The position numbers and the translations under genes are program-made. A model generated the notes under the pieces. It saw nothing but the letters and a program-made list of their open reading frames with translations. It had not been told where the DNA came from and ran no database searches. A stretch of 64,000 nt of DNA, taken from positions 244,404 through 308,403 of the IMG/VR virus record IMGVR_UViG_3300032782_000001. One strand, written 5' to 3'. Each line of letters starts with the position of its first letter. Position 1 is the first letter of the stretch. Origin of the DNA: a virus. Below are positions 12,831-35,137 of this stretch, in pieces.

Positions 12831-13183
12831 TATATTCTGTGGATATTCATCAACTCAAAGCCATCGCAAAACGCGGCGGGATCGTTAAATGGATCGCTTC
12901 GGGCATGTACGAAAAGCTCGGAATGCTAGGAAAGCGAGTCACGGCTCAAGGGCCTAATTCCCCAATCCATTTCTTGTCTGGCGATCGAACCAAATTCCAT
13001 TGTGTTGAAGTGAATCCGAAATCCACGGTCCCCGCGGGAGAATTGTTATTTCCTCGAGGCCCCGTTCCCTACGGATTGATCGTGAGTTCACATTACAAGT
13101 ATAAAGAAACTGTGCGCTTCAAAGCTGAAGCCCGTGAACGTAAGAAGAACATGAAGATCGTAGCTGAAGTCATGGAATCCTGA
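12779..13183 (+). CDS. Small protein with C-terminal VMES tag (family member)
   Basis: Ends ...KIVAEVMES-stop (gtc atg gaa tcc tga), identical to the cluster at 21.7-27.5 kb. The true start may be downstream of the overlap with 12405-12830. Confidence 0.4.
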   Translation: METIPIQSSEIDDRITIVYSVDIHQLKAIAKRGGIVKWIASGMYEKLGMLGKRVTAQGPNSPIHFLSGDRTKFHCVEVNPKSTVPAGELLFPRGPVPYGLIVSSHYKYKETVRFKAEARERKKNMKIVAEVMES

Positions 13184-16696: not shown

Positions 16697-18202
16697 TTAG
16701 CCCAACGCCTTTACTTCCATATCCCCATCTACCCGGACATGGTGCTTCTTGGCCCTTTGACCGATAGCAAAATTGGAAACGACTTGCTGGGCCGCCGCAG
16801 TCAGATCATCTGAAGTGAAGGTGACAGCGCCACCAGAAGTACCTCTTTCAGCCACCGCTCGGATAACGGTAGACTTAGCAAGTTCCTTCACATATGCGCC
16901 CGTAAGCCCTTCGCATAGTTCGATCACGGTGCTGATCGTATCTTTCGTAACCGAAGCATCGGGAACAGCATGAAGCTTCTTGAGGAAGGAATGAAGCATA
17001 AGAGCACGGTCGATGGAATCCGGGTAGGGAATTTCAATTTTGACATCAAACCTACCTGGCCGATTAACAAGAGCCTCGTCCATTGAGGCGATGTCATTGG
17101 TTGAAGCCATTACTACAACCCCAGCATTCTCTTGAGCCCCATCCAGACATGCCAAAAACTCATTGAGAACGCGACTTTCATAACCGCTCAGACCACTCCT
17201 GTTCCCTCCGAACAGGTCCATGTCTTCAATAAACACAATGCAAGGGGCCAAAGTCCTGGCGGCCTGGAACAGTGAAGTTACGTGTTCAGGATAATCAATT
17301 GACTTTCCCGTGCACCAAATTCGAGTAGCTTGACTTTCAGTTTCATGCGAGATAGCACGAAACAATGTCGTTTTCGCCATTCCGGGCGGAGAAATAAGGA
17401 TAGCATTCCGATTCGGGCACATGCCGACGGAAGCCAATTCCTCCATATGTTTGAGCACTTCTACGGTGTTGTCACGAATAGCGCATTTGACATGATCCTT
17501 GAGAACAATATCGTCCCAAGACGTCGAAGTCACTGCCATGAAGTCTAGATGACCACGTTCAAAGCAAAGACATTTCTTGAAATAAATATCATTAGCTCGA
17601 ATAGACGCATCTAGATCGTGGAAGAACTTTTCAGCTGCTGCTTGTTGAGTAGGGTGAGCAAGAACCGTTAGACTACAATATGGCATCTCGTAACAGAAAT
17701 CTGCCCGGACAACTAAGTGCGTATCGTCGACTTCGTTTCTGACAAAGAAAATACCGTAGACGGGCAGCGTCTCCGTCCGACCAAGGTCCACAGAAAGTTG
17801 TTCATACTGAATGCGGTATGAACTACGCCCTTTGAGGGCTTCTTTGAATTCATACTGGTCGAGGAAAGGTACGATTTCGTATTCGGCACCGTTCACGCCG
17901 TAATTTTTGAACAGACGAGTGAAAGCCCAGGCATTCAAATTCCTAGCAAATGCTGGATAAGTTCGATTGAGATTAATGGCAAGATGAATCTCACATCCTA
18001 GCCAAAGTTCTTTAATGTGGGAATCCGGGTCGGACGGGTACCAACGCTCCACTCGGCGAGCCAGAGCAGCCCGTTCGTCCACCTTCGAAAAATAGGAGTC
18101 CAGAATATAATTGGCGGCTCCGGCAAAAGCATCCGTAATTCCGTAAGGAATACTCACGAGGCTTGGAAGGTAGCCTGCAGTCTTGCGCACGGGTCGGCCC
18201 AT
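16697..18202 (-). CDS. AAA+ family ATPase (501 aa)
   Basis: Walker A-like ILISPPGMAKTTL, Walker B IVFIEDMDLF, sensor-like region (SIDRALMLHSFLKKL) downstream of the ATPase core. Confidence 0.65.
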   Translation of the reverse strand: MGRPVRKTAGYLPSLVSIPYGITDAFAGAANYILDSYFSKVDERAALARRVERWYPSDPDSHIKELWLGCEIHLAINLNRTYPAFARNLNAWAFTRLFKNYGVNGAEYEIVPFLDQYEFKEALKGRSSYRIQYEQLSVDLGRTETLPVYGIFFVRNEVDDTHLVVRADFCYEMPYCSLTVLAHPTQQAAAEKFFHDLDASIRANDIYFKKCLCFERGHLDFMAVTSTSWDDIVLKDHVKCAIRDNTVEVLKHMEELASVGMCPNRNAILISPPGMAKTTLFRAISHETESQATRIWCTGKSIDYPEHVTSLFQAARTLAPCIVFIEDMDLFGGNRSGLSGYESRVLNEFLACLDGAQENAGVVVMASTNDIASMDEALVNRPGRFDVKIEIPYPDSIDRALMLHSFLKKLHAVPDASVTKDTISTVIELCEGLTGAYVKELAKSTVIRAVAERGTSGGAVTFTSDDLTAAAQQVVSNFAIGQRAKKHHVRVDGDMEVKALG

Positions 18203-18668: not shown

Positions 18669-20282
18669 ATGACGATCACTGTCGGCGTGACGCAAACGGC
18701 GTCCGACCTATCCAACGTCATCCAGGCGGTTGTCGTCTTAGGGTCAGATAGCGAGCTTCCCAATCCGCTCGCATCTTTCCTCAGTCCGGACACTTATTTG
18801 TCCGTACTCACTTCATTGTCTATCCAACCCGGGACGTATGACATCGGTCAAATTACCGTTACGTCAGTTAGTTCCCCCATATTTGCACAATTCGCTTACA
18901 GCCTCACTGTCAGGTTCGTCAAAAAAGGAACCGCAGTCACTTCTGCACAGTTCGTGGGGCCGGCAGGACCGGTAGGTCCCCAAGGACCAGCCGGAGAAGA
19001 CGGAGCTCCCGGAGGCCCACCAGGGCCTCAAGGACCAATGGGTCCGGCTGGCCCACAGGGGCCAACTGGAGCACGAGGGCCAACTGGACCGAACGGATCT
19101 CCGGGAGCTCAAGGTCCCATTGGTCCAGCCGGACCATCCGGAGCTAGAGGCGCCACCGGACCGCAGGGAATCCAAGGAGTCACAGGTCCATTCGGTGGAC
19201 CTCAAGGTTCTCAAGGTTCTCCAGGAATTACTGGTTCTCAAGGAGAACCAGGGGTAACCGGAGCGACTGGGCCCCAAGGAACTACAGGTCCTCAAGGTCC
19301 TATCGGGTCCCCAGGGAATCCCGGTAGTCAAGGATCTCCTGGAGTCACAGGGTCTACGGGACCGGCTGGTGCGACTGGAGCACAAGGAGCTACTGGTCTA
19401 CAAGGAGCAACTGGAGCACAAGGAATAACTGGGGCGACTGGACCACAAGGATCAACTGGAGCACAAGGAGCTACCGGTCTACAAGGAGCACAAGGAGCTA
19501 CCGGTCCAACTGGAGCACAAGGAGCTACCGGTCTACAAGGAGCAACTGGAGCACAAGGAATAACTGGGAAAACTGGTGCAACTGGTCCCCAAGGTAGCCC
19601 GGGAGTAACTGGTGCAACGGGGGCTGTTGGACCTCAAGGTGTTACTGGTGCAATTGGACCTCAAGGTTCTCAAGGAAGTCCTGGTGCAACGGGGGCTGCG
19701 GGGGCAACGGGTGCGGTTGGACCTACTGGGTCGCAGGGTATTCAGGGCTCACCTGGGGTCACTGGAGTAACTGGACCTGCGGGAGCTCCTCAAGGGTCAC
19801 CTGGCGTCACTGGACCGCAGGGTCCTACAGGACCACAAGGTGCGACTGGGCCGGCTGGCGGCGGTAGTGCAGTTACAGGAGCGACGGGTCCTCAAGGCGC
19901 AACAGGACCTGCGGGCGCCATGGGCGTCACTGGTCCAATGCGACGGTTCGTTTACCCGACTCCGTCGTTCCCTGTTACAGCTAGCTATATGGCAAGGCCA
20001 TTCGAGAGGGTGTTGTACGCCCCTACGGGGTCAGCATTCACTATTTTTGCTCCGTCGGGGCCTGTGCAAGGCGATCAATTTGCCGTTAAACAAATCACCA
20101 ACAGTCAAACTGCTACCATGACCTTCAACGGCAACAATAATAAAATTGAAGACCCATTTGGTGTAGGACTCCCAGGAGTTACGTCATCCATTATGTCAAT
20201 AGGAGGATACTCCGAAACTTCCATGGTGTGGGAATATGACGGAGTCAACACTTGGTATTTGTTGTTCTTTTGGAGCAACTAG
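18669..20282 (+). CDS. Collagen-like protein with non-collagenous N- and C-terminal domains (537 aa)
   Basis: About 330 aa of uninterrupted G-X-Y triplets ([38 protein letters not shown]...) flanked by a ~95-aa N-domain and a ~110-aa C-domain. Confidence 0.8.
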
Positions 20283-20494: not shown

Positions 20495-21430
20495 ATGTTA
20501 CCAAAAGAGGGTCATTGTATTGTGCGCACCATGAATGTTGCTTTTGATATGGAGACTTCAGATCCAGATGACGTCTTCACACTTTGCTTCTTAGCAGGCC
20601 ATCCGGCCGTAAAACTTCGTGCGGTCACAATAACACCAGGTTCCAAACAACAAATAGGACTGGTGAAACATGTTTTAAAAAGGCTCGGATTAGATATCCC
20701 TATCGGAGCCAGGAAACCGGATCACCCCAAATCTTGTGTTTCGGAATTCCATCACAAGTGGTTCGGAAAGATTGAAGAAGCCGTACCCGATGGATTGGGA
20801 TGGGAAATTCTGTCTTCCGCTTGTATGTCGAGCTTCCCTCTAGCAATTGTTACAGGAGGCCCACTTGGGAATCTCGGGGACATGATCGCTAACGGTCGAA
20901 TTCATGAGTTGAGGGGGCTCATCATTCAGGGCGGATTCGCAGGGGATAACGTGACGAAGCCCGAGCATAGGCTGCCAAAGTTTGCTGGACGAGAAACAGC
21001 ACCAACTTTCAATCTAAACGGGGACGTGAAATCTGCCTGGGCAGTGTTAGCATACCCGAAAGTAGCTAGTCGCAGGCTAGTATCAAAAAACGTATGTCAC
21101 GGGGTCATATATGACCAGCCAATGCATGAACGAATGAAGCCCTTCCGTCACGTAAGTGCCGGGATCGGGATGATGATTGAAGGGATGGAAATATACCTCA
21201 AGAATAAGCCCGAAGGGAAAATCTTCCATGACCCGCTGGCGGCTTGCGTGGCCATCGAACCAGAAGTCTGCGAATTCCGCGAGGTAGCAATCTACAGGAT
21301 CAAAGGGGAGTGGGGATCCAAGTTGGAGTCCGGAACCAAAACGTGGATTTCCACTGCCGTGAACCGAGAGCTTTTCGAACAAGTATTGTCTGGTCAACGA
21401 GGCGGCGGGCGAACTGAGTCACTTCCCTGA
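20495..21430 (+). CDS. Inosine-uridine-preferring nucleoside hydrolase family protein (311 aa)
   Basis: N-terminal FDMETSDPDDVFTLCFLAGHP matches the DxDxxxDD calcium/ribose-binding fingerprint. The following VTITPGSKQQIGLVKHVLKRLGLDIPIGA matches the conserved second block of IUNH enzymes. Confidence 0.6.
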   Translation: MLPKEGHCIVRTMNVAFDMETSDPDDVFTLCFLAGHPAVKLRAVTITPGSKQQIGLVKHVLKRLGLDIPIGARKPDHPKSCVSEFHHKWFGKIEEAVPDGLGWEILSSACMSSFPLAIVTGGPLGNLGDMIANGRIHELRGLIIQGGFAGDNVTKPEHRLPKFAGRETAPTFNLNGDVKSAWAVLAYPKVASRRLVSKNVCHGVIYDQPMHERMKPFRHVSAGIGMMIEGMEIYLKNKPEGKIFHDPLAACVAIEPEVCEFREVAIYRIKGEWGSKLESGTKTWISTAVNRELFEQVLSGQRGGGRTESLP

Positions 21431-21708
21431 TCTGCAGACTCTTGTTCTACGAACCGAAGAAACACACGTCTGGCTGCGTGCTTACCGTAGCCAATCCTCT
21501 CCATGAAGGTCTCGAATTTGCTCTCACCCTCATGGAAAGCTGATGAAGTAAAAGTGATCCCGCAAGGACCAGTAGCAGAAATAACTTCAAGTCGATCCGG
21601 ATAAACTGGGTCTACTCGAATTTCCATTCCAAGAGGATGTAGAATCCTCCTATTAATCTCAAACAGGATTCCATCCGCTTCTAAAGTCTGAGGCAAGATC
21701 TCCTTCAC
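21394..21708 (-). CDS. Hypothetical protein (104 aa)
   Basis: ORF track. Divergent from the 21781 gene across the palindrome. Confidence 0.35.
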   Translation of the reverse strand: MKEILPQTLEADGILFEINRRILHPLGMEIRVDPVYPDRLEVISATGPCGITFTSSAFHEGESKFETFMERIGYGKHAARRVFLRFVEQESADQGSDSVRPPPR

Positions 21709-21780: not shown

Positions 21781-22122
21781 ATGGGAGACGTCATCTATGC
21801 CTCCGACGAACATTCTCTCTACGGAGAATTATATCGAATTCTCAATGAGCTGGCTTTGGAAACCGACCTCATGGAAAAGGGTATCATCGTCGGATTCCAT
21901 AGGATCGACAATTCTAACTGCAAATATGTATGTCAAATTCAAGACTGGGAGGGGGATGACAGTCCGATCGAATTTGAAAGGAGAATTGAGAAACTGGTAG
22001 AAGGTAATATTCTCATGATTCGACTCCAAGGACGGGGAGCCGATTGCAGATTTTACGTGATTGCGGAAACCATAGAAGAAGCTTTAGGGAAAATTACCGT
22101 GTTCCAGATCATGGAATCATGA
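21781..22122 (+). CDS. Small protein with C-terminal IMES tag (113 aa)
   Basis: Ends ...VFQIMES-stop. Its stop overlaps the stop of the convergent IMES gene inside a palindrome. Confidence 0.5.
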   Translation: MGDVIYASDEHSLYGELYRILNELALETDLMEKGIIVGFHRIDNSNCKYVCQIQDWEGDDSPIEFERRIEKLVEGNILMIRLQGRGADCRFYVIAETIEEALGKITVFQIMES

Positions 22123-22134
22123 TTCCATGATCTG
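22105..22134. repeat. Perfect 30-bp palindrome cagatcatggaatcatgattccatgatctg formed by two convergent genes that both end QIMES-stop
   Basis: Read directly. Each arm encodes I-M-E-S-stop for the gene on its strand; the stops overlap. Confidence 0.6.
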
Positions 22135-22350
22135 ACGAACAATATGCACATCACAAGAATCGTCTTTCTCGGGCTGACTATTGAAAGACATCATACCGCA
22201 TCGGTCGCATTTCTGTGCAACCATGGCAGGGTCGTATGACCAAGTCATATTAACGTGGACCTCTACAGATTCTTTGTTAGGCTTTTCAGCTCGTACACAC
22301 AGAAATGATTGGTCCTCGCCGTCTACGACATCGCGCCATTTATGATCCAT
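22117..22350 (-). CDS. Zinc-ribbon protein with C-terminal IMES tag (77 aa)
   Basis: CDRCGMM...DSCDVHIVRQIMES-stop. Confidence 0.5.
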   Translation of the reverse strand: MDHKWRDVVDGEDQSFLCVRAEKPNKESVEVHVNMTWSYDPAMVAQKCDRCGMMSFNSQPEKDDSCDVHIVRQIMES

Positions 22351-22365
22351 ATCGGAAGCGTACGC

Positions 22366-22881
22366 TCAATACGAACCGAATGACTCGTGAACTTCAGGCA
22401 TGAGTTCACGGACTTTTTCTTCAGTTCGATGAATATCACACAAATCCCAATGGAAACTGTGATTGACAGAAGCAAATTTCTGCGTCCAGTTTCCACAGAC
22501 GACGCATTGGCGTTGAGTACCAGAATGCATGCCGTCAAGACGCATATGATTGTCAAGTAAATACGAACGGTAGCAAGCTTGAGCTTCTTGCTCTGTCGCA
22601 TGTCCGTCATCGTGGTACTTAGACTGATTGGATTGAATACGTTGCCATTCAGCATCACTCATATGACACTCGGCACGTTTCTCGGGAGTCCAATCGGTTT
22701 TATGACAATACCCGACGGGATAAGTACCGGTCCGTTTGTTCTGACAAGTGTAATCCCAACGTTTATCCAGAGTCCTTTGCCTGGCTGCGTAATAGTTCAC
22801 CGGATACCTCCAGTTAGCAGCGGCAATCAACTTTCCATGACTTCCCAGGCTTTCATGGTCGGGGTCATGACGACCTCCCAC
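22366..22881 (-). CDS. Cys/His-rich hypothetical protein (171 aa)
   Basis: Multiple C/H clusters (CHKTDW...ECHMSD...CVVCGNW...HSFHWDLCDIH). Probably binds metal. Confidence 0.4.
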   Translation of the reverse strand: MGGRHDPDHESLGSHGKLIAAANWRYPVNYYAARQRTLDKRWDYTCQNKRTGTYPVGYCHKTDWTPEKRAECHMSDAEWQRIQSNQSKYHDDGHATEQEAQACYRSYLLDNHMRLDGMHSGTQRQCVVCGNWTQKFASVNHSFHWDLCDIHRTEEKVRELMPEVHESFGSY

Positions 22882-23153
22882 AAGCCTTGTTCATTAGACG
22901 CTATTACGAGATCTTCCCATAAAATACTACAGAAATTTTCTCGGAGTTCAAAAATGGCGTTGGGACAAATCTTGTGATTATCGGCATATCTCGTCAGCGA
23001 ATTAACGAACTCAACAAATACCTTTTCGTTATCAGGATTCCCTACCGGGTATAAGCGCCTCGCGCGCTCCATACATGCGCCCAAGATCCGTGCTTTTTCC
23101 CAGCTGCGGAGTTCTTCGTCTGTTGGTTCAGAAGAATAATGTGTCGCAGTCAT
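22827..23153 (-). CDS. Small protein with C-terminal VMES tag (108 aa)
   Basis: Ends ...KAWEVMES-stop (gtc atg gaa agt tga). Confidence 0.5.
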   Translation of the reverse strand: MTATHYSSEPTDEELRSWEKARILGACMERARRLYPVGNPDNEKVFVEFVNSLTRYADNHKICPNAIFELRENFCSILWEDLVIASNEQGLWEVVMTPTMKAWEVMES

Positions 23154-23554
23154 TCCATCTTCAAGGCCTTACACTGGAAAGAATTGTAATGTTTGGAGTG
23201 GAGCGCCTCATATTGGAACCCACATTGCTCATGCATTGGATTCGGGAAGCTGAATGGAATGAACGCACGAAAAGAGTGAAAGCTGTGGAATTGGGCATAG
23301 GAAGTTATGTAGAATTCCGACGATGTCGACCTACAGGATTCGATTCAATAACTGATATAAAATCTCTTGCAACCGGACGCATGGGGACAGTTTGGGGTGT
23401 GGAAATTATCGCATCCAGATTTAACGCGGAAAACGTGATTGTGTTCGTTTTTGAGGACGATTCTCGAGAAATCCGTGGAAAATGCATGCAAAAGGAAGAT
23501 CACATGTGCGGACACGAAAATTGTCGAGTCGTCCGTGAAGTCATGGAGAGCTGA
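23075..23554 (+). CDS. Small protein with C-terminal VMES tag (159 aa; start may be internal ATG 23189)
   Basis: Ends ...GHENCRVVREVMES-stop (gtc atg gag agc tga). Its 5' end overlaps the divergent VMES gene, so a later start is likely. Confidence 0.45.
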   Translation: MRPRSVLFPSCGVLRLLVQKNNVSQSFHLQGLTLERIVMFGVERLILEPTLLMHWIREAEWNERTKRVKAVELGIGSYVEFRRCRPTGFDSITDIKSLATGRMGTVWGVEIIASRFNAENVIVFVFEDDSREIRGKCMQKEDHMCGHENCRVVREVMES

Positions 23555-23591
23555 TTCCGAAAATCTCGCGAGATTCTAGGTATTCCATCAT

Positions 23592-24023
23592 ATGAACTTT
23601 CCGGAAACCACCATGCAGTCCCAAGCTGATGTGGAAAATATTCTGGCGAAGGTTGCCTTCCGGCCCAGTTGTGTGAACCTCGACTGGAAATGGGAATTGA
23701 AGCCCGTTTATTCGGCTCCTCCCGAATCCGATATTTCAGGATGGCTCATCCGGACCTCATTCGTCAGACCTGACACGGATAGCGGAGAAATCCAGCGAGG
23801 ATTTGGAAGGTGGGAATATGTGGAAAAAGGAACTTCAATCAGCGGAGTTGTGAAAACTTGCTGGCTCCTCGCCGAACTCATCGTACGGCATGAACTCATG
23901 GAAGCTTTCACCTACGAAGGATCGAAGATCTTTGATCCTCATCACGCTGTAGGTATTTTGAAGTCAGCTCAGACCGTTCAGATCATCATGAATCAAAAAG
24001 AGCAAGCAAGCCCAAGCCCATAA
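23592..24023 (+). CDS. Hypothetical protein (143 aa)
   Basis: ORF track. Confidence 0.4.
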   Translation: MNFPETTMQSQADVENILAKVAFRPSCVNLDWKWELKPVYSAPPESDISGWLIRTSFVRPDTDSGEIQRGFGRWEYVEKGTSISGVVKTCWLLAELIVRHELMEAFTYEGSKIFDPHHAVGILKSAQTVQIIMNQKEQASPSP

Positions 24024-24025
24024 AG

Positions 24026-24421
24026 TTAGCTAGACATAACTTCAGTAACACAACATTCTTCATCAGAATGATGATTTCCAGCAACCATCGTTCCGCATTT
24101 CCAACAGAACATCTCGAGGATGAACACGGCAACGGTCCGACGCCCGGAAGTGTCTGCCATATGTTTGGAAATCAATTTCCGCACGTTCTCAGGAAAGAAA
24201 TTATCTCTCGTGCGACTGAAATTCCCGAGGGAAATAGTCCAATGACGATTTTCCACTGGATCAATCATCGTCCCGTCTTTATCGTATCCAACTGACGTCC
24301 AACCCAAAAGAGGTGGGAAAACCCCGGGAATGTCAGCACAAATGACAGAATCTCCTGTGCGCCTGACATGCTCGTGCATATCTTCAAAAAGTTCGCGCAC
24401 AGTTTGGAAGAGAACTTGCAT
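24026..24421 (-). CDS. Zinc-ribbon protein with VMSS C-terminus (tag variant, 131 aa)
   Basis: CWKCGTMVAGNHHSDEECCVTEVMSS-stop. Confidence 0.45.
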   Translation of the reverse strand: MQVLFQTVRELFEDMHEHVRRTGDSVICADIPGVFPPLLGWTSVGYDKDGTMIDPVENRHWTISLGNFSRTRDNFFPENVRKLISKHMADTSGRRTVAVFILEMFCWKCGTMVAGNHHSDEECCVTEVMSS

Positions 24422-24436
24422 TGTAGAGTTGTCTCT

Positions 24437-24904
24437 ATGCCCGTAGAACCTAACCCGTACGATACACCTGAATTGATTGAACTCCGGAAGGGTCAGGGAG
24501 ACCCTCTCATTCTATATCTGATTGTCCGGGAATCACTCGGAATGGGCGTGGGGAAAATTGCGGCCCAATGCGCTCATGCTACTCAAATGGTGATGTTGCG
24601 ACACCTTGAGTTGGAAAGAGACGCATGGGAAAATCAAATGTCACCAGCTCATTCACCGAGTCATGAAGCTGCCCAAAAACTTCGCAGTGTCGTAGAAGAA
24701 TGGCTCCGAACATCCTTCCGAAAAGTCGTCCTAAAGGCTGACGATAAAGAATGGGCAAAAATCAAAGAAACGGTAAACGTCTTCGTCGTTAAGGATGCCG
24801 GGTTGACCGAAGTGGAAGCTGGTTCAGAAACCGTGATGGCGCTCTGGCCAATGCGGAAGAGCGAAGCTCCGAAAATTATCCAAAGACTTCAGGTCCTGAA
24901 ATAG
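24437..24904 (+). CDS. pth2: Peptidyl-tRNA hydrolase, PTH2 family
   Basis: LILYLIVRESLGMGVGKIAAQCAHA and VFVVKDAGLTEVEAGSETVMALWP correspond to the two signature blocks of archaeal/eukaryotic PTH2. Start set at the internal ATG 24437 so the gene does not overlap gene 24026-24421. Confidence 0.6.
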   Translation: MPVEPNPYDTPELIELRKGQGDPLILYLIVRESLGMGVGKIAAQCAHATQMVMLRHLELERDAWENQMSPAHSPSHEAAQKLRSVVEEWLRTSFRKVVLKADDKEWAKIKETVNVFVVKDAGLTEVEAGSETVMALWPMRKSEAPKIIQRLQVLK

Positions 24905-25162
24905 TCAGGATTCCATGACATCACGAACGATGCAATGAGGGCAACCACTCTCTGCCCCATCGTCTGTCATCTTTTTACAAATCGGGCAGGGAGGATCAGG
25001 CCAATCCACAAGCATGGACCGCCGAGGCTGACTAATGTAATCGATAGTCTGCCGGATGGGGTCCGTATTCGGAACGACCAATTTCTTGATAATAGGGAAC
25101 GAAAACTTCTTGAATTCAGGAACGTCAACCATTTCAAGACCCCATGATTTGGGCGACGACAC
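24905..25162 (-). CDS. Zinc-ribbon protein with C-terminal VMES tag (85 aa)
   Basis: CPICKKMTDDGAESGCPHCIVRDVMES-stop. Confidence 0.5.
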   Translation of the reverse strand: MSSPKSWGLEMVDVPEFKKFSFPIIKKLVVPNTDPIRQTIDYISQPRRSMLVDWPDPPCPICKKMTDDGAESGCPHCIVRDVMES

Positions 25163-25299
25163 ATTCTTCTTCTGTATGCACTAATCCACGCTCGACTAAG
25201 AGCCTGCACTTCTCGCAAGAAATCAAAACGACGAATTTCTTCGGGCCTTTCATGTTGACCCGAATCACCTGTGTGATTTCAAATTCAGGACATCGCATG

Positions 25300-25701
25300 T
25301 CAAGACTCCATGACTTGAATCACAACACAAGCTTCTTCGGAATGAAGATGCTCACGACCTTCCAAAATGGTCCTTCCACAATCTAAACATGAATAAATAC
25401 GCATCATGCCTTCTTCCGGCATCAAATCAGACAGTGTCATTTTCTTGAGAGGAGTCGTTTCTAATTCCTGACGGATGGGCATCCTTCCAATAAACTCTGG
25501 CTCGGATTCCCGATAAACCGCCCCCGTAAATTTCAAATTAACCACGTCAGGATTCCATGATGGAGCGAACGGTGCATTCAAGACAACCGAGTTCGGCTCC
25601 GTTATCGGAGTCAAGTAATCCGCAGATCCGACAAGGGACATCTGGAAGTTGACTGACTGGCGAACGCCGTCGGACTTCACCTGCGACCCAGAGACGGTCA
25701 T
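25300..25701 (-). CDS. Zinc-ribbon protein with C-terminal VMES tag (likely shorter, from an internal Met)
   Basis: CLDCGRTILEGREHLHSEEACVVIQVMES-stop. The track ORF overlaps the upstream IMES gene by 155 nt. Starting at MPIRQ... would remove the overlap. Confidence 0.45.
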   Translation of the reverse strand: MTVSGSQVKSDGVRQSVNFQMSLVGSADYLTPITEPNSVVLNAPFAPSWNPDVVNLKFTGAVYRESEPEFIGRMPIRQELETTPLKKMTLSDLMPEEGMMRIYSCLDCGRTILEGREHLHSEEACVVIQVMES

Positions 25702-25798
25702 TGATGTCGGACATAATGCTTCGTCCGAGTTTTGCTCGCTTCTCAGGATCTAGAAGACACTGTTTGACGAATTTGATCTTATCGTCTTCGTGAGACAC
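25547..25798 (-). CDS. Zinc-ribbon protein with C-terminal IMES tag (83 aa)
   Basis: CRICGLLDSDNGAELGCLECTVRSIMES-stop. Confidence 0.5.
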   Translation of the reverse strand: MSHEDDKIKFVKQCLLDPEKRAKLGRSIMSDINDRLWVAGEVRRRSPVSQLPDVPCRICGLLDSDNGAELGCLECTVRSIMES

Positions 25799-26209
25799 TC
25801 ACAACATTACACGCAAAATCCGAAGGGCGCGTGTTACATCATCATCAGATAGGCCTAGGGAGTTATCTACACGGATGAACTCCGGTCCAAAGCCTCCCAA
25901 ATCCCTATCGTCGAGGATCAAGAATTGATCCGGGTGATTCTCTTGTACCCAAGCAAGAATACCCTGGACACGGTCTTCCGCAACGTCCAAAGCCTCGAGA
26001 CGAGGTCCAGTATATCCAGAAGCCCTGAAGATAATTTCAAGCTCGTCCGGTTCAAACCGAATCCGCCAAAGAGAAGTCACGACCACACGAACATGTGGAA
26101 TCGCGGCGAGCTCATTGAGACGAGCTACTAAATGCCGTTCCAAAATTCCTGGTCGAAAAGCTCCACCGAGGTTTAGAACGCCGTCGATGTCCAGGAAGAT
26201 GACTTGCAC
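25799..26209 (-). CDS. HAD-superfamily phosphatase-like protein (136 aa)
   Basis: N-terminal VIFLDIDGVLN is the HAD motif I DxDG(T/V) nucleophile block. Confidence 0.45.
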   Translation of the reverse strand: MQVIFLDIDGVLNLGGAFRPGILERHLVARLNELAAIPHVRVVVTSLWRIRFEPDELEIIFRASGYTGPRLEALDVAEDRVQGILAWVQENHPDQFLILDDRDLGGFGPEFIRVDNSLGLSDDDVTRALRILRVML

Positions 26210-26212
26210 GAA

Positions 26213-26779
26213 CTAAGATACGACGACAGAATCGAGATCTACAAGCTTCAAGATCCCATCCGAAGTCCGCATAACGTTGCCAGGATTCACATCCACGTGA
26301 ACAGTTCCGCTTTCTTCCAGTCTATCGTACAATTCCAAAGCATCGTCGAGAAAGTGGGATCCCATGTATTGCTTGATGGGCTTCCCAGAAATTTTGGCTC
26401 GAACGATAGCAGCAACTTCTTCCGCGTTGTCTGCCGGCTCGAGCTTCTCCATTACGTAGTAGTACGCCCAGCCTTGGGATCGACCAACACCTGGATTGTC
26501 GATCTCGCACAGAACGTCTGCTTCGTAGATTCTCGGATAAACTGTAGCGTCTTTCCCCATCAAACGTTTGATTTCCGCTACACGGTCTCGGGCGTCCTCC
26601 TCGTCAATCGCTACTTGGATCTTCAGAACACGGTCGCCCAAATCATAGACTTCACCCTGCCTTCCTGAACCAAGAAGTTTCCCGAGATCAGGAAAGGACA
26701 CATCACAGGTGTCTTGAACAGCGTCCATCATGCCGCCGGCAAAGATGGTGAGGGCAGTACGATAGAGCTTCATGATCAA
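26213..26779 (-). CDS. Minimal eukaryotic-like protein kinase (188 aa)
   Basis: Gly loop LGSGRQGEVY, VLKI (VAIK Lys), catalytic-loop-like HVDVNPGNVM (HRDLKPxNI) and LVDLDS (DFG-like) in the right order and spacing for a truncated ePK fold. Confidence 0.5.
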   Translation of the reverse strand: MIMKLYRTALTIFAGGMMDAVQDTCDVSFPDLGKLLGSGRQGEVYDLGDRVLKIQVAIDEEDARDRVAEIKRLMGKDATVYPRIYEADVLCEIDNPGVGRSQGWAYYYVMEKLEPADNAEEVAAIVRAKISGKPIKQYMGSHFLDDALELYDRLEESGTVHVDVNPGNVMRTSDGILKLVDLDSVVVS

Positions 26780-26824
26780 GAGAGCTCCATCCAGATGTCC
26801 ATGCTTGGACAGGAAACTAAAGAG

Positions 26825-27040
26825 TTAGCTCTCTATGACGGACCGAATGACACATTCAGGACACCCGTCGTCAGCTCCACCGTCGTTTACGATTACGCCG
26901 CTATCAATTACAAAGATCTTCTTGCAACTCGCACACGGTTTATCGTAATCCCGTGTAGTTCGAGCAGGGAGGGTCATCGCTCGTGCCAGTGCGAGCCTTC
27001 CCGCATGCGTAGAAATGATCTGTGTAATCACGGAGTCCAT
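26825..27040 (-). CDS. Zinc-ribbon protein with C-terminal VIES tag (71 aa)
   Basis: CASCKKIF...DDGCPECVIRSVIES-stop. Confidence 0.5.
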   Translation of the reverse strand: MDSVITQIISTHAGRLALARAMTLPARTTRDYDKPCASCKKIFVIDSGVIVNDGGADDGCPECVIRSVIES

Positions 27041-27259
27041 TCAGAATTCCATCATTTGTATGGCCTGCGAAGCTTTGTGATACCTGATTTGAGTATTTCA
27101 TAACATCGGAGACAATCCCGGTTCCTATGAATTTTGGAGAGTTGTTGGTTACCAAGCTTGAGCGCCCGCTGCCTCGTCGCCGCTTGGACGCGAACACGAT
27201 GGGTCCTCCAGGGGTTACCACCATTCGCCCATATGATCCATTCTCTTAGCTTCATTAAT

Positions 27260-27490
27260 CTAGCTCTCCATCACTTGCATTACAATACACTCTTCCGGAG
27301 AATGATGGTGTCCATATTTGAATGTGAATCCGCAATCGTCACATTTCGTTATTAACGAGATCTCCATGAATATAGGCTGTGGATCCACGTGGTAGACCAC
27401 TAGAGTTTGTGGCTGGAGTTCCATCTTCTTGGGTGGAAGATCTGGTCCATTCCAGCGAATTTCGCCAATATCAAAAGATTCTGGCATCAT
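27260..27490 (-). CDS. Zinc-ribbon protein with C-terminal VMES tag (76 aa)
   Basis: CDDCGFTFKYGHHHSPEECIVMQVMES-stop. Confidence 0.5.
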   Translation of the reverse strand: MMPESFDIGEIRWNGPDLPPKKMELQPQTLVVYHVDPQPIFMEISLITKCDDCGFTFKYGHHHSPEECIVMQVMES

Positions 27491-27873: not shown

Positions 27874-30800
27874 TTAAGCGCTGATGCGGATCTGAAGGGT
27901 GCTTACAACGTATTCCAGCGGGAACACCGGTACGTAGATCGAATTGGTCCGCATGATGGTCGGATCGCTGTCATCCACGGCTGCGGAGATACCCGAAACC
28001 TTGGCGACAATCTGGCTATCGATCAAACGTCCGAACATTGCAGTCAACGCACGTTCCGTCGTCTTAATTAGGGTGCCCGTGAACTTCTGCCCGATGAACG
28101 GATCAAGAGTCGTTCGGACGCTCTGTTGCACGAATTGAATCGTGAGGGTAACAGACGGCGTACGGGTAATGACCGTGTCAGTCCGGGTCGTCAAACCGTG
28201 GCGGACACGAAGTCCGGAGTCCACAAGCTCGATAACCGAGACTCCAGAGACCGCCACTTGATTGGCTTCCGTGGGGTCAAGAAGCCTTCCCGGGCGAACA
28301 AACCCGAGAACAGGGCGTCGAGTCCAAGGAGAAGCCACGTCAATAGACGGAGTGCAAGTCGTCGCAGCCAGAGAAGCCGCAACGTAGGACCCGTCCACGA
28401 GTTGGTTTGAGATGTTGCCGAGGCTATCTTGAACTCCGATGAGGTAGGAGTCTGGATAGACCACCACCATGAGTTCGCTGGCCAGTCCTTGCGCAATAGC
28501 CTGAGCAGCCAACGGATTAGTACCCGCTGCCACTCCAACCACGCCCATCCGCTCTCCCTCTTGACGCGGAGAGCTCATCACAACGCAGTGCTGGTTCAGG
28601 TAGGCGAAAATCGCCGGATCCGTGCCCAGCGGCGTAATGATGTCAGGCTTGACATTGCCTTGAATTGGCTTGCGAAGCTCGTCGATCGCGGCCGTGAAAG
28701 ATCCGACGGAGGCTTGAGAGGTCCCAGGGACCTTCAAAACCTGCTTCAAACCCACGAGGACAGCTCCATTGAGCAATGCGAGACGAGCTCCAAGCGAGAG
28801 GGGGAACTCCGGAGTAGGAGGCCCGAACGCTGCTTGAATCGATTTCGCATCCCGGTAGAGCGCCGCTGAAAGATCGGTCTTCGCGAAGTTGTACGACACG
28901 TAATAAATGTCGCCGATCTGAGGCTCGTTGCCGCTCCTACCAAAGGTCTGCACGATTCCAGTCGTATCAATACCCATGTTCAAGGTATTGAACACCGTAG
29001 TTTCGAGACCCGGGATGGAGCGGTATGGAATGGAAGCGTCGGCCGTGAAGGTAGAATTCACGATGAGCGTGAACGTTCCACCGTTCGCGTAATCTCCCGC
29101 GGACGCAGGGAGAACAGTGAACCTGAGGCCCGTGATAGCATCCGTATAGGTCTGACCGGGGAATCCGACGCCAAACGAACCATTAGGATTCGTCGAAGTA
29201 ACCGTGTAACCTGCACGTGCAGCTTCACCAGCATCTCCGGAAGCACCAGGAACGATCCCGATACCCGTATCCGTTACGAAGATCGTGTTGGCGACCGACG
29301 TGAAGGACAGAAGACTGCCCGTACCGGCGGTCCTTGAGTTAATCTCGAGGTACCCACCAATTCCCGCCGACGTAATGCGGTAAGCCACAGCCAAAGCATT
29401 GAAGCTGCCGTTGGCGTTCAGAGCTCCCGCAATATCGGAGGCAAATGGCTGATGACGGAAAGTCGCATTTCCAGAGGTGAACCCGAGAATGGTGTTCGCG
29501 GAACCCTGGTTGATTCGAACAAGAGAAGTGACCGTATTGGTCCTTGAGACCATGACCACTTCACCAGCGTTGATGCCGAGGCCTTCCTGAGCCACAAGCT
29601 CCGCAAGAACCGACGTGACAATGTTCACAGTGTCGTTGACAACGTGAACGCCAGCTTGCGTCCTGTGCGAGTTATACTTGCTCTTGAGCTCCTCCGCCAA
29701 AATGAGTGCCGAGCGGAGGTCCGTCGCATCCGGCGCTGCTACAACGTTGACCGTATCGGTCATGGGGTGATATGCACCGCCAACGTTAGTCCGGTGGTTG
29801 TTGTAATCACCCTTCGCCTCGTTCAGAAGGGTGATGGAGCTTGCCAGATCCGTCGCATTGGGCGAAGTAATCCCGTTCGCAACGTCTGCCACCGTATGGA
29901 AAACGGCTGATGCGATGTGCGTGTTATACTCGGACTTAATATTGTTGGCGAGTACGACCAGCGCTGCAGTTTGAGTTGCCTGATCTGCTGCTGGTGCGTT
30001 TGCCGAGTATCCGGCGTTGATGTACGCAACAACATCTTCGATGGAGACTGAAACGCCAGCCGGCAAAATGGCGACGTAATCAGTACCATCAATCGTGAAT
30101 TGGAAGTTGTCGTTTACCGCCGCGGTGATAGCGAACGGTGCCGTCTTCGTTCCAACTTGGATCGCCGGCTGATTGATAGCGTTGTAAGAACCCGTCGATT
30201 CTTGATTCGGAGTGAAACCCAGTGCCGGAGCGGCATCCGTCTGTCCAGGCGCCGTGGGAGAAAGAACCTTGACGTTAGACTTGAGTCCGTTAGTCGCCGA
30301 GAGTACGTTGCGTCCAACGACCTTAAGAATCGACTGAACGCCGTAGGTAACCACCGACGCGAGATTGTTCGGCGCCGTCGAAGCGAAAGTACCGGAACCA
30401 TCTGGATGCACTTGCACATCCGCATCGATCGCCGTGTTGATGTCCGTTGCAACCTGCGCAAGCGTGGTAGCTGCAGAAACATCAATCGGCGCAATGTTGA
30501 CACCATCCACTTGGATCACAAGGTGATCCGTAGCTTGGAAGACCAACGCGCCGGGGTTACTGATGGGTTGCGAGAGAAGCTGCGCCACATAGGCCAGCGA
30601 AAGATCCACGGTGAATGCGGGGTTACCGTCAACCACCACACCACCGAAGTTTTTCGTGGCGAGATAGACGTCGTACGGCTCGGCCCCGGCATTCGAGAAA
30701 GAAGCGTGAGTGGCCGGCTCCAACGCATTGCTGAAAGCAATGGTGACCGTTTCAGATACGGGATTCCCACCGAAGTGGATGGCGTCAGTGACGTTCTCCA

Positions 30801-32547
30801 CTCCCGACGGCCATTGAACCGTCTGAGGAAGCGCGCTCTTGGTCCCGAATCGGACCCCGTAGAGAGGCCCATTGTTGTTCACAGCTGAAGAGATCGTGAA
30901 TTGACCAATCCCACTCGGACCAGGAGTAACTACCTTCAAAGTGAAGGTGTCGTCTCCCAATCGGTTATACCAGAACGTAGCAAACGCCAGGTAATCCGCA
31001 GGAACGGGGTCGCGAAGCGTGAAGGTATTCGTGGAGGAGTCCACTTCGAGCACAGTCACGGCGGGGCGAGAAACCGCGTCCCTAAAATTCTTGCCGACGT
31101 AGACAGTGACAAGATCCGGACGATTGGTCGGAAGGTCGATACGACCGTTCGTGATCGTCTGATAAAGATCAATTCCGAGTGGCGTGTCACGACCGTTACC
31201 GGTCGTGGGCGTCAAAGGCATGACGAACTTGGTCGTAGAAACGGTATCCGTTACCGTATCTGTGAACCTGTCACACTCCACACCGAAAATTCGATCATCC
31301 ACCAGCAGACCGACGATCTGAGTCCCATCGAAGCTGGATACTCCAGTCTTCACTCCAGCCGTCACCTGGAACGCAGTTCCCCATTGGATCATCGACTGGT
31401 CGGCATCGTTGACAACAACGAAATCCGGACCATTGAGATAATCGCGGCGCCCCGGAGCAATGCCAACATTGCCCATCGTGACGATGTTGTTGTTGGGCAG
31501 ATAGTCGAAAGTATCTTGGAACGTGTTGAAGTAATACTGAATGGTGATCTTTGATCCGTCTTTCGGAGCGAAAGGAAGGGTAACGAGGCGATTGGCACCA
31601 TCCACGGACGTGGCGATCACTTGAAGGTTGTCGACCAGTACGACAACCTTAGAAGTGTCCGTCGTCGTGATACCTCCATCGGAACCATCAACGATAGGTC
31701 CATTGAAGACACGGAACGTCTTGTTGCGATTCGTGTAATCTCCAGGGTTGAACCCGAGAGCTCCATTCCCAGTTCCGGAACCAATAAGTACGTTGCCAGT
31801 AGCAACGAGCTGAACGTGATTCAAACCCTGAGCGTCTACGTGAACAGATGCCTGGAGTCCCGTGATCCCCGCGGCGTTCACATCGTTCGCGATGTCAGTC
31901 GCGGTGCGCGTACCCGCCGTCAGTTTGATAACACCTTGCAAGACATCGTTGACGGTCACATTGAGTTTGTCATTGACATTCAACGTGATGGTGTAAGTCT
32001 CCGCCTTCGGAGCAACGAGTACGGCTACACCTTTCGTGATCTGAGCCGAAAGATTATCCGTGATCCGCGTGTCTTTGCGGTGGAAATTGTAGCTGACAAG
32101 GACAACATCGGTCGCTTGAGGCGGCACCAGAAGGCTTACGAGACCGTTGGTACCATCGACCGCAGACACGACAGCTTGATCACCGTTTACGGTGACCGAA
32201 ACCTTAGTCGTATCGAAAGTCGTCTTGCCAATGCCCGAACCATCTACAATTGGGTAATTACGGACCCTGAATTGAGATCGGGTTCCGTCCTGTTGACCCA
32301 AAGTAGGATTTTGGGGGGTCCCACTCAAGACCCACCGACCCGTAGCGTCTTCGTTGAAGATCGGCGTGTCAGCAACGCTGCTGGACCCGCGGATGATCTC
32401 GAAGTCGGTCTGGGTGAGAGTCTCCTGCCCGGTACCAATCAGAACGGGGACCCTCAGTCCACCGAGGAGCTGTCCAAGGACGGGCTCGGTGATGGTCTGC
32501 GTGTAGACGCCGGGAGGCGCGTAGGTCGTGAACGGTCCGATGCCCAT
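27874..32547 (-). CDS. Giant virion structural protein with repeated beta-sandwich (Ig-like) domains (1557 aa)
   Basis: Internal repeats (SQFRVRNYPIVDGSGIGKTTFDTTKVSVTVNGDQAVVSAVDGTNGLVSL / KTFRVFNGPIVDGSDGGITTTDTSKVVVLVDNLQVIATSVDGANRLVTL). Thr/Val/Gly-rich. The domain is shared with ORFs 33562-34770 and 37612-38943. Confidence 0.65.
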   Translation of the reverse strand: MGIGPFTTYAPPGVYTQTITEPVLGQLLGGLRVPVLIGTGQETLTQTDFEIIRGSSSVADTPIFNEDATGRWVLSGTPQNPTLGQQDGTRSQFRVRNYPIVDGSGIGKTTFDTTKVSVTVNGDQAVVSAVDGTNGLVSLLVPPQATDVVLVSYNFHRKDTRITDNLSAQITKGVAVLVAPKAETYTITLNVNDKLNVTVNDVLQGVIKLTAGTRTATDIANDVNAAGITGLQASVHVDAQGLNHVQLVATGNVLIGSGTGNGALGFNPGDYTNRNKTFRVFNGPIVDGSDGGITTTDTSKVVVLVDNLQVIATSVDGANRLVTLPFAPKDGSKITIQYYFNTFQDTFDYLPNNNIVTMGNVGIAPGRRDYLNGPDFVVVNDADQSMIQWGTAFQVTAGVKTGVSSFDGTQIVGLLVDDRIFGVECDRFTDTVTDTVSTTKFVMPLTPTTGNGRDTPLGIDLYQTITNGRIDLPTNRPDLVTVYVGKNFRDAVSRPAVTVLEVDSSTNTFTLRDPVPADYLAFATFWYNRLGDDTFTLKVVTPGPSGIGQFTISSAVNNNGPLYGVRFGTKSALPQTVQWPSGVENVTDAIHFGGNPVSETVTIAFSNALEPATHASFSNAGAEPYDVYLATKNFGGVVVDGNPAFTVDLSLAYVAQLLSQPISNPGALVFQATDHLVIQVDGVNIAPIDVSAATTLAQVATDINTAIDADVQVHPDGSGTFASTAPNNLASVVTYGVQSILKVVGRNVLSATNGLKSNVKVLSPTAPGQTDAAPALGFTPNQESTGSYNAINQPAIQVGTKTAPFAITAAVNDNFQFTIDGTDYVAILPAGVSVSIEDVVAYINAGYSANAPAADQATQTAALVVLANNIKSEYNTHIASAVFHTVADVANGITSPNATDLASSITLLNEAKGDYNNHRTNVGGAYHPMTDTVNVVAAPDATDLRSALILAEELKSKYNSHRTQAGVHVVNDTVNIVTSVLAELVAQEGLGINAGEVVMVSRTNTVTSLVRINQGSANTILGFTSGNATFRHQPFASDIAGALNANGSFNALAVAYRITSAGIGGYLEINSRTAGTGSLLSFTSVANTIFVTDTGIGIVPGASGDAGEAARAGYTVTSTNPNGSFGVGFPGQTYTDAITGLRFTVLPASAGDYANGGTFTLIVNSTFTADASIPYRSIPGLETTVFNTLNMGIDTTGIVQTFGRSGNEPQIGDIYYVSYNFAKTDLSAALYRDAKSIQAAFGPPTPEFPLSLGARLALLNGAVLVGLKQVLKVPGTSQASVGSFTAAIDELRKPIQGNVKPDIITPLGTDPAIFAYLNQHCVVMSSPRQEGERMGVVGVAAGTNPLAAQAIAQGLASELMVVVYPDSYLIGVQDSLGNISNQLVDGSYVAASLAATTCTPSIDVASPWTRRPVLGFVRPGRLLDPTEANQVAVSGVSVIELVDSGLRVRHGLTTRTDTVITRTPSVTLTIQFVQQSVRTTLDPFIGQKFTGTLIKTTERALTAMFGRLIDSQIVAKVSGISAAVDDSDPTIMRTNSIYVPVFPLEYVVSTLQIRISA

Positions 32548-32738: not shown

Positions 32739-33104
32739 GTGAATACTTCCGAAACCAATCCGAACGATGGTGGCGCGTTGACCGAAGTTGACTACAACAC
32801 TTTCACCAAAGTTGACATGCGCGTCGGCACCGTGAAATCGGCAGTCAGAGTCCCTGATACCGACAAGCTCATTTGTATGCAAGTGAGCTTCGGTAGCTTT
32901 GATCGTCAAATTGTGGCTGGAATCGGCAAAGTTTTCACGCCAGAAAGTCTCTCTGGGCGTCAGTTCATCTTTGTCGTGAATTTGGCTCCTCGGAAACTTC
33001 GAGGAGTGGAATCCCACGGGATGATGCTTGCTGCGAGTGACAAAGATAAACTCGCGCTTATTGTGCCAGACAGTAATGCTACGGACGGAGCCTCGGTAGG
33101 CTAG
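32739..33104 (+). CDS. Stand-alone tRNA-binding OB-fold protein (CsaA/Trbp111/EMAP-II-like Myf domain)
   Basis: FTKVDMRVGTVKSAV...DKLICMQVSFGSFDRQIVAGIGKVFTPESLSGRQFIFVVNLAPRKLRGVESHGMMLAA follows the tRNA-binding-domain consensus (fxkvDlRVGkI...dkLyv..VD.G...rqIvSG......L.Gk.vvvv.NLkP.klRGv.S.GMlL). Confidence 0.6.
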   Translation: MNTSETNPNDGGALTEVDYNTFTKVDMRVGTVKSAVRVPDTDKLICMQVSFGSFDRQIVAGIGKVFTPESLSGRQFIFVVNLAPRKLRGVESHGMMLAASDKDKLALIVPDSNATDGASVG

Positions 33105-34804: not shown

Positions 34805-35137
34805 TCACGAACCGCGACGACTACGACGGGACTTCTTGGGCTCCATTCCCACGTCAGTCGAGCTGGATGACTCGCCAGACTCCATAGACGGAGCATCATC
34901 AGACGATGAATCATCAAGAGGAGCATCTCCTTCAGAAGGAGGATCCTCTACTTGAGGCTCTCCGTCAGGGACAACGGGCAAATCTTCCGGATCTGCATAC
35001 AACACCACATCCAATGAGTGCTGCGCGTTGTGGAGAACAACATCCTCCTCGGTCAGGACGATGTGAGGAACTTCGACTCCCTTATAGTTCGGCATTTGGC
35101 ACCTACCGATCGGTGAATCGGAAAAAAGGTCGCTCAC
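34805..35137 (-). CDS. Acidic hypothetical protein (110 aa)
   Basis: ORF track. Asp/Glu/Ser-rich C-terminus. Confidence 0.35.
   Translation of the reverse strand: MSDLFSDSPIGRCQMPNYKGVEVPHIVLTEEDVVLHNAQHSLDVVLYADPEDLPVVPDGEPQVEDPPSEGDAPLDDSSSDDAPSMESGESSSSTDVGMEPKKSRRSRRGS

Follow-up and report, generated by a model that had tools for sequence, protein, structure and literature searches.

A predicted helical C-terminal tail ending in Val-Met-Glu-Ser on many unrelated small proteins of one huge-phage clade: a candidate docking signal

Why do many small and otherwise dissimilar proteins of one phage end in the same four residues? The question is raised by a 64,000-nucleotide stretch of virus DNA (IMG/VR record IMGVR_UViG_3300032782_000001, positions 244,404 to 308,403), referred to here as the window. 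Between 21.7 and 27.5 kb it holds an array of dense small open reading frames (ORFs) on both strands, 11 of which end in VMES, IMES, VIES, VMSS or IMGS. We refer to this ending as the tag, to the helical segment that it closes as the tail, and to the proteins that have it as carriers. The window is part of a myovirus-like phage contig of 337-436 kb. Matches to Pfam or PHROG are few in this highly divergent genome, and megablast of 12 kb against the GenBank phages gave none. A sequence-only reading of this DNA had listed 12 tagged ORFs as members of a paralogous family with an invariant C-terminal tag, mostly fused to a zinc ribbon. All 12 exist and end as it described. Its list omitted the 54-residue ORF at 25134-25298, and three of its starts are probably later than given (Table 1).

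The tag is far more frequent at the ends of ORFs than chance predicts. Among the six-frame ORFs of the window, which are not curated genes, 13 end in [VI][MI][ESG]S and 10 have the strict form [VI][MI]ES. For stop-to-stop ORFs of at least 40 residues, these 10 strict ends compare with 0.15 predicted from the internal frequency of the motif, and shuffled sequence yielded 0.015 on average and never more than 1. Similarly, ends of the form [VI]M[ED]x number nine, where 0.08 are expected. The comparison with chance that had been proposed as a check of the tag therefore supports it in the window. One further ORF, 21418-21543 (+), ends in LMES; it is probably a chance match, because it lies antisense to a conserved ORF.

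The codons of the tag vary freely. Ser is encoded by TCC, TCA, TCT, TCG, AGC and AGT, Glu by GAA and GAG, and the Val/Ile position by GTC, GTG, GTT, ATC and ATT. Such synonymous switching indicates conservation at the level of the protein. The stop codon that follows shows no special bias (TGA after 10 of 13 tags, compared to 27 of 51 other genes). Note that the convergent genes 21781-22122 (+) and 22117-22350 (-) overlap at the palindrome TCATGA (22117-22122), which provides Ser-stop on both strands. The tag is also present in related phages with G+C contents from 39% to 69%. Codon variety and survival over this range of composition show that selection maintains the tail as an amino-acid sequence and not as DNA, as the sequence-only reading had concluded from the Ser and Glu codons.

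The complete tail comprises ~11 residues with the consensus [E/L]-x-hydrophobic-V-x-x-[V/I]-M-[E/D]-S-COOH. To call it invariant was too strong: positions -3 (Met) and -4 (Val/Ile) are near-fixed, but Glu at -2 is found in ~65% and Ser at -1 in ~66% of carriers, with D, S or G otherwise at -2 and G, T, E or Q at -1. Positions left free by the search pattern are conserved as well (-7 Val 58%, -1 Ser 66%; 104 carriers). At -10 and -8, hydrophobic or acidic residues recur with helical periodicity, and -8/-7 and -4/-3 share one face of the helix.

AlphaFold2 (AF2) predictions were based on shallow alignments. The model of P0001 (27260-27490), based on the family alignment, has strands at residues 47-49 and 56-58, forming a beta-hairpin (47-58), and a helix at 65-75 that reaches the C-terminus. 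Over the hairpin and this terminal helix, the block-mean predicted local distance difference test score (pLDDT) is >90. The last zinc ligand is predicted to sit in the first turn of the terminal helix, in a treble-clef-like arrangement. In this model the tail thus forms the final turn of a helix of amphipathic character; V-7, V/I-4 and M-3 are predicted on one face and E-S-COOH at the end. In the case of P0024, a carrier with a capsid-protein-like N-arm (see below), AF2 returned confident helices and no confident packing (predicted template modelling score, pTM, 0.34), and the model is thus silent on whether the tail packs against the N-arm helix.

A zinc ribbon (CxxC...C/H-x-x-C/H) precedes the tail in nine of the 13 window carriers. 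Ligand pairs of the type CxxC ... C/H-x(2-5)-C/H are found in ribbon members, and the remaining carriers have no ligands. In eight of the nine ribbon members of the window, exactly 8 residues lie between the last ligand and the chain end, so that the spacing rule proposed earlier holds with one deviation (23231-23554, 9 residues). The claim that the tag is mostly fused to a ribbon is correct for the window, but clade-wide a ribbon is present in only 28 of 104 non-redundant carriers (~27%). The tail is kept in members that have no ligands at all (37392-37607 and 21781-22122). No curated zinc-ribbon profile matched (best Pfam scores 13-15 bits, compared to cut-offs of 21-35), and Pfam and PHROG searches with 10 members gave nothing above threshold.

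To follow the family beyond the window, a ribbon-plus-tail profile was run in a full HMMER scan against 1.84 billion representative proteins. The 24 matches consisted of nine window proteins, three unrelated zinc-finger/repeat proteins of eukaryotic type and 12 foreign homologues of 36-83 residues. All 12 foreign homologues end exactly 8 residues past the last Cys, with VMES, VMSS, VMRS, VQES or IMDS; more distant relatives end in VLTT, IHDS or VMLE. A profile search of this kind had been suggested at the outset, and it recovered tag-like ends in all 12. A word-index protein search with the ribbon-plus-tag profile retrieved the window's own proteins only, a first DNA pattern had 0 matches in IMG/VR, and six of seven matches in a pattern scan of JGI metagenomes were due to chance. 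The related locus L003 (G+C 56%) has about nine members in 5.4 kb that correspond member by member to those of the window, and L004 (39%) has six within 2 kb. L013 (63%) shares the Zn_ribbon_8-sheath order of the window, and the next 11 kb hold ~17 ORFs with ends of the form xVM[EDSG][SEG], mostly without a zinc ribbon.

Related loci were retrieved with the tail sheath, major capsid protein (MCP) and AAA genes as anchors, so that any positional enrichment in them is biased. We define the tag clade as the phages whose MCP shares at least 84% identity with its L023 counterpart; their contigs measure 240-440 kb. MCP-anchored loci of this group contain 38 [VI]M[ED]x ends against 0.82 expected, whereas loci with an MCP of 76-77% identity (the LR745208.1-like group) contain 0 against 0.18. 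Sheath loci divide in the same manner, with 12 such ends against 0.51 expected at a sheath identity of at least 54%, and 0 against 0.11 at 44-46%. The window sheath shares 40% identity with that of LR745208.1 (uncultured phage, 485 kb) and 30% with the protein annotated as sheath in Tunturi_5, a Tunturiibacter phage with an acidobacterial host. No tagged ORF was found within 20 kb of the sheath gene in these two phages, and no N-arm paralogue. Thus, the tag is restricted to one clade of huge contractile-tailed phages.

Within this clade the tail is attached to very different proteins. Carriers are small, for the most part acidic and of no recognized family, and their arrays are variable, with high turnover between related phages. 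With the last 10 residues removed, 50 curated carriers fall into 31 BLAST clusters, and at least 30 protein bodies without mutual BLAST similarity bear the tag. Carriers found in further IMG/VR loci via the sheath and MCP genes include helical proteins of 170-190 residues, a 'YRDRVK..VMES' family and proteins with DnaJ-type CxxCxGxG fingers. Another subfamily has one transmembrane segment, an Arg/Lys-rich basic stretch and then the tail (L099 9944-10174; L104 15110-15364; L013 7656-7952), an order that would place the tail on the cytoplasmic side. Taken together, the tail helix is under protein-level selection, independent of the protein body and at a fixed distance from the chain end.

Several carrier bodies resemble parts of the capsid protein. 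In a tblastn search against GenBank phages, the N-terminal half of P0024 matched the corresponding end of two major head proteins, those of LR745208.1 (59% identity over 46 residues, E 1e-10) and Tunturi_5 (gp334, E 2e-4). A profile built from 122 MCPs matched with its N-arm (positions 6-57) in ten carriers, at E-values of 3.5e-10 to 6.5e-3 that apply, as do those of the other local scans, to small databases. Positions 232-257 of the profile were matched by 25300-25545 and its L003 orthologue (E 1.7e-4 and 2e-3), in the former through an N-terminal 'EPEFIGRMPIR' (MCP positions 233-256). In 24905-25132 the MCP alignment extends into the ribbon, and the first CxxC knuckle, 'CPIC', lies over 'LPIY' at the start of the MCP E-loop. 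As a control, every one of the 446 six-frame ORFs in the window was searched with the MCP profile. E-values of <0.01 were limited to four ORFs; all four are tagged, and they represent three MCP segments. Moreover, BLAST of carrier bodies against 1,444 long ORFs of related loci found the MCP only, besides over-extended tagged ORFs. Carriers hold segments of 23-60 profile positions (N-arm 6-68, 182-241 and 232-257), and the full HK97-fold of ~290 residues (PF25209) is not present. By these comparisons, several carriers are conserved chimeras of capsid-protein fragments and a zinc ribbon. The sequence-only reading had considered that the proteins might be fragments of one degraded duplicated gene. 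Several members do contain MCP fragments, but these are conserved across distant phages and are thus not decaying.

The HK97-fold MCP of the clade is encapsulin-like: it has an N-terminal helix and lacks a delta domain. In L023 a spacer of 85 nt separates the MCP gene from a tagged N-arm-plus-ribbon gene downstream of it. Tagged genes directly follow the MCP gene in many tag-clade loci, although these loci were anchored on the MCP and arrays occur elsewhere as well. The variable block that holds them is absent in the tag-less clade. Of the 22 tagged ORFs downstream of the MCP, 19 share its strand.

The head module itself (L023 458-2047; L082 7561-9060) contains a Gln/Glu-rich scaffold-like protein of 416-529 residues that ends in ...LENLWDRP. 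Its gene lies just upstream of those for a 231-residue protein and the MCP and is conserved in tag-bearing and tag-less clades. Comparison of the head modules of the two groups revealed no obvious clade-specific candidate for a reader of the tail. A likeness of the tail to the end of the MCP spine helix ('EDERVFAVMDA' in LR745208.1) was also considered; it is loose and unproven, the tag clade's own MCP reading 'EDDRVFSILDA'.

What, then, might the tail do? Protein-level selection, modularity and the lack of a match to any known signal are more readily explained by a common recognition signal than by a simple family of paralogous domains. The explanation we favor, tentatively, is that of a portable amphipathic C-terminal helix that has been placed on dozens of unrelated small proteins in one huge-phage clade. 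Its hydrophobic face (V-7, V/I-4, M-3) and a free carboxylate exactly two residues past the Met would dock the carriers on one common partner encoded by the clade, preferably the head assembly, that is, the inner face of the HK97-fold MCP or procapsid. That a single common partner reads the tail seems to us fairly probable; that this partner is the procapsid is a somewhat weaker proposition than the favored explanation as a whole. We rank the procapsid or MCP first among candidate readers, ahead of an AAA+ ATPase and, in third place, a host target, because of the MCP-derived bodies, the linkage and co-orientation with the MCP gene and the precedents for docking on HK97-fold shells. On such a shell the role of the tail would be the loading or tethering of cargo, of small factors resembling chaperones and of membrane anchors. 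Both the anchors and the DnaJ-like fingers are compatible with tethering or chaperoning at the assembly site. In its most specific form, which we consider unlikely, the tail would be a procapsid loading address for cargo and factors, the viral counterpart of encapsulin targeting peptides, and the carriers would have been partly exapted from the MCP, its N-arm being copied and the start of the E-loop hairpin turned into a zinc knuckle.

Several observations weigh against docking on the procapsid. The proximity of tagged to structural genes is partly an ascertainment bias of the sheath, MCP and AAA anchors, and the stretches that follow sheath and MCP genes commonly serve as hot spots at which accessory genes insert. 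Membrane-anchored carriers are excluded as luminal cargo, the tail motif is unlike encapsulin cargo-loading peptides, and ~75% of carriers have no similarity to the MCP. The AF2 model of the N-arm member lacks confident tertiary packing, as described above (pTM 0.34). In addition, the MCP (which ends in RLT[VI]TR), the scaffold-like protein and the 231-residue head protein do not have the tail themselves.

Alternatively, the tail may dock on the AAA+ ATPase of the clade (16697-18202), where it would mark the carriers themselves for unfolding as a degron or form the unvarying part of adaptors that hand bound targets to the unfoldase. We regard this as doubtful, if less so than the specific loading address outlined above. 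The module belongs to the classic unfoldase clade, and across the whole tag clade its gene is retained downstream of that for the sheath. Full-length orthologues, N-domain included (45-62% identity), were found only in tag-clade sheath loci and in IMG/VR contigs with tag-clade MCPs. None was seen outside the tag clade, although the tag-less clade was searched with short peptide patterns that divergent copies could escape, and none was among the top GenBank phage matches (best 24% identical). The interval from sheath to AAA gene (0.14 to 9.3 kb) holds the array in the window and contains tagged genes in eight of 24 loci, usually 50-1000 nt upstream of the AAA gene, but none in the other 16. As a link to the reader this co-occurrence is suggestive but weak. 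A degron or adaptor role would suit the diversity of the carriers, membrane-anchored ones included, but leaves the MCP-derived bodies unexplained; no partner protease was seen in the window, and the N-domain, which has no family or PDB match by sequence, shows no recognizable peptide-binding fold at that level. A host protein as the target (an RNA polymerase-like hub, a protease or a defence component), with the carriers acting as takeover or anti-defence effectors, is less probable still. Small, mostly acidic proteins in fast-changing variable arrays are typical of accessory and anti-defence loci, and bodies made of MCP fragments could conceivably decoy host sensors that recognize capsids. 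However, the tag is unchanged over G+C contents of 39-69%, which implies very different hosts and makes a phage-encoded partner the simpler explanation, and most tagged genes downstream of the MCP are co-oriented with late structural genes.

Two further explanations dispense with a reader altogether. The tail might be no separate signal but the last helix of an expanded treble-clef-like zinc-finger family, packing on its own hairpin, as would be consistent with the position of the last ligand in the first turn of a confidently predicted helix and with the shared face of -8/-7 and -4/-3. A purely structural role is nevertheless quite improbable, because most carriers (~73%) have no ribbon; furthermore, the ligand-less members keep the tail, its solvent-exposed Glu-Ser end and exact chain end are conserved, and the carrier bodies are mutually unrelated. 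Least probable by far, and largely refuted by the codon data already, is that the 3' end acts as a nucleic-acid signal (a Shine-Dalgarno-like GGAG, a mini-ORF ATG-GAR-WSN-stop or a terminator) or that the ORFs are decaying fragments of a capsid gene. It is true that ATGGAG places GGAG 7-9 nt ahead of the next start in a few tandem pairs, that Met has a single codon and that MCP fragments occur in carriers. Yet the Ser codons come from both the TCN and the AGY family, and GAA and GAG are both used for Glu; moreover, the tag persists where genes converge and no gene follows (21781/22117, 24026, 24905). These two features rule out the Shine-Dalgarno, mini-ORF and DNA-motif ideas. Conservation across G+C contents of 39% to 69%, ordinary stop-codon usage and the maintenance of orthologous groups in distant phages, those with MCP-like segments among them, also speak against this explanation.

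Short C-terminal docking tags as such are a known kind of signal. Encapsulin cargo-loading peptides, like the capsid-targeting signal at the C-terminus of the HK97 prohead protease, are short C-terminal peptides read by an HK97-fold shell. They share with the tail a short conserved peptide at the extreme C-terminus of unrelated proteins, and the MCP of the clade is encapsulin-like. However, encapsulin peptides are extended and of GSL type, whereas the tail is a helix ending in VMES without a GSL consensus; it occurs on tens of carriers per genome, some of them membrane-anchored, and its docking is a prediction. In phage 80alpha, the scaffolding protein and SaPI1 CpmB have a common C-terminal helix that docks on the MCP N-arm. 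Here, too, a C-terminal amphipathic helix is common to unrelated small proteins and the N-arm is involved, but the N-arm has been copied into small proteins and the scaffold-like protein of the clade lacks the tail. C-terminal tails read by AAA+ proteins include ssrA and the SspB XB tail with ClpX, and the MIM helices of ESCRT-III with the MIT domain of Vps4. The parallels are a short C-terminal tag or helix on many proteins and a classic AAA+ ATPase nearby with the same phyletic range. In contrast to these systems, the tail has no LAA, XB or MIM consensus, and no MIT or zinc-binding N-domain was recognized in the ATPase. Specifically, the ssrA degron has a non-polar end of LAA type where the tail has E/D followed by S, and the logo of the tail does not contain the MIM pattern (D/E)xxLxxRLxxL(K/R), the N-domain having been compared by sequence. 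PDZ ligands of classes I-III have a hydrophobic last residue, unlike the Ser (66%) or G, T, E or Q found here. Zinc ribbons and treble-clef fingers share with ribbon members the CxxC...C/HxxC ligands, the predicted hairpin and a helix starting at the last ligand pair; they differ in that no Pfam model scored above threshold and in that the ribbon is optional here and the tail constant. The internal proteins of phage T4 have an N-terminal capsid targeting sequence that is removed by the prohead protease at the cut site (L/I)-x-E (PMC3012670). Alike are a terminal peptide of ~10 residues on hypervariable, clustered small proteins and the resemblance of [V/I]-M-E to (L/I)-x-E, a fit seen in ~65% of carriers, with D, S or G at -2 in the rest. 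By contrast, the tail is C-terminal in all carriers, and cleavage past the Glu would remove one residue only. As in the sequence-only reading, the tag corresponds to no known C-terminal signal; it also falls into no Pfam or PHROG family, and no description of a VMES tail was found in Pfam, PHROGs, NCBIfam or the literature searched. New are this tag, the tens of carriers per genome, the confinement to one clade and the capsid-fragment/zinc-ribbon chimeras.

Table 1. Tagged ORFs of the window and the principal genes around them (N-arm, N-terminal arm of the MCP; L003, related locus).
Positions	Strand	Length (aa)	Description	C-terminal end	Remarks
12779-13183	+	134	tagged, without ribbon	...KIVAEVMES	
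16697-18202	-		classic-clade AAA+ ATPase (PAN/Cdc48/FtsH-like module); 215-aa N-domain without known family		
21781-22122	+	113	tagged, without ribbon	...ITVFQIMES	L003 orthologue 4017-4370, ends IMTS
22117-22350	-	77	tagged, CxxC...CxxH ribbon	IVRQIMES	
22827-23153	-	108	tagged, without ribbon	...KAWEVMES	L003 orthologue 3478-3786, ends VMRR
23231-23554	+	107	tagged, degenerate ribbon	RVVREVMES	ORF open from 23075; body homologous to MCP positions 182-241 (E 3e-6 and 6e-5)
24026-24421	-	131	tagged, CCHC ribbon	CCVTEVMSS	orthologues P0028 (ends VMLE) and L003 1249-1635 (ends VMGS)
24905-25132	-	75	tagged, MCP N-arm copy (E 2e-3) and C4 ribbon	CIVRDVMES	alternative GTG start 25162
25134-25298	-	54	tagged, CCHC ribbon (ends ...EEECVVAQIMGS)	CVVAQIMGS	
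25300-25545	-	81	tagged, CCHC ribbon	CVVIQVMES	length from GTG at 25545; ORF open to 25701
25547-25798	-	83	tagged, degenerate MCP N-arm copy and C4 ribbon	CTVRSIMES	groups with N-arm cluster in BLAST
25799-26209	-		HAD_SAK_2 phosphatase, inside array		syntenic with L003
26213-26779	-	188	truncated protein-kinase-like gene		ends just past DFG-like motif
26825-27040	-	71	tagged, MCP N-arm copy (E 2e-5) and C4 ribbon	CVIRSVIES	
27260-27490	-	76	tagged (P0001), CCHC ribbon	CIVMQVMES	
27874-32547	-	1557	tail sheath		array starts directly downstream, same strand
37392-37607	-		tagged, ribbon ligands lost (SPEEEIIYEVMGS)		start uncertain; 90 aa by one gene caller
43686-43931	+		possible divergent member, CxxC...H...C ribbon	...TIVAMVMKT	profile search did not confirm

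The starts at 25545 (GTG), 23231 and 25132 are probably the true ones, later than those listed before, because public gene calls and homologues begin at the same places. The GTG at 25545 directly follows the stop of 25547-25798, and homologues start likewise. The kinase-like and phosphatase genes had been put forward as possible partners of the tag. The HAD gene occupies the same place in L003 and is syntenic only there and in the window, and no kinase-like gene was seen next to the tag arrays of L003 or L013. We dropped both as partners, since neither is consistently linked to tagged genes.

Other genes in and around the array are accessory and related to translation and nucleotides: an inosine-uridine nucleoside hydrolase (20495-21430), a peptidyl-tRNA hydrolase of the archaeal/eukaryotic type (PTH2; 24368-24904) and a protein with a tRNA-binding domain (32739-33104). 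Between the array and the AAA gene lies a collagen-like repeat protein (18669-20282, +; Pfam Collagen, E 2e-45). The GC-rich region 59400-64000 (62%) seems collagen-like by eye, and the census gave one weak Collagen match (E 3e-4) whose protein was not pinpointed. An actin-like protein is encoded at 35134-36183 (-; Pfam Volactin, E 4e-70). Its tag-clade orthologues have the ending ...LL[AS]QM[ED][DE]-COOH, with Met at -3 and an acidic residue at -2, like the tag; the ending is ...ASEEH or ...LQEH in the tag-less clade and ...SQSEE in the window copy. A retroviral-type zinc knuckle (CX2CX4HX4C/H), unusual for a phage, opens the proteins 12405-12830 (+; CSYCGKTGHDRRSH) and 40731-41345 (+; CSVCGKPGHNRRSC). 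The region 43928-55541 is a large sugar-modification cluster with group 1 and group 2 glycosyltransferases, two NAD-dependent epimerase/dehydratases, methyltransferases and a radical SAM plus B12-binding enzyme. It also contains one TPR match, the protein not being pinpointed; this was the single TPR match in the Pfam census of the remaining window proteins, which included no PDZ domain and no S41 peptidase.

In conclusion, huge phages encode hundreds of proteins without a family, and the tail groups dozens of them into one functional class and poses a single testable question, the identity of its reader. If this were the AAA+ ATPase, the phages would carry a tag-and-unfoldase system of their own. 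If it were the procapsid, the tail would represent a modular packaging and tethering code in a tailed phage that may be of use in engineering; should procapsid loading prove true, a helix with a four-residue end could programme what a huge phage packs or tethers. The capsid-fragment/zinc-ribbon chimeras are unusual and point to new genes made from pieces of an essential structural gene.

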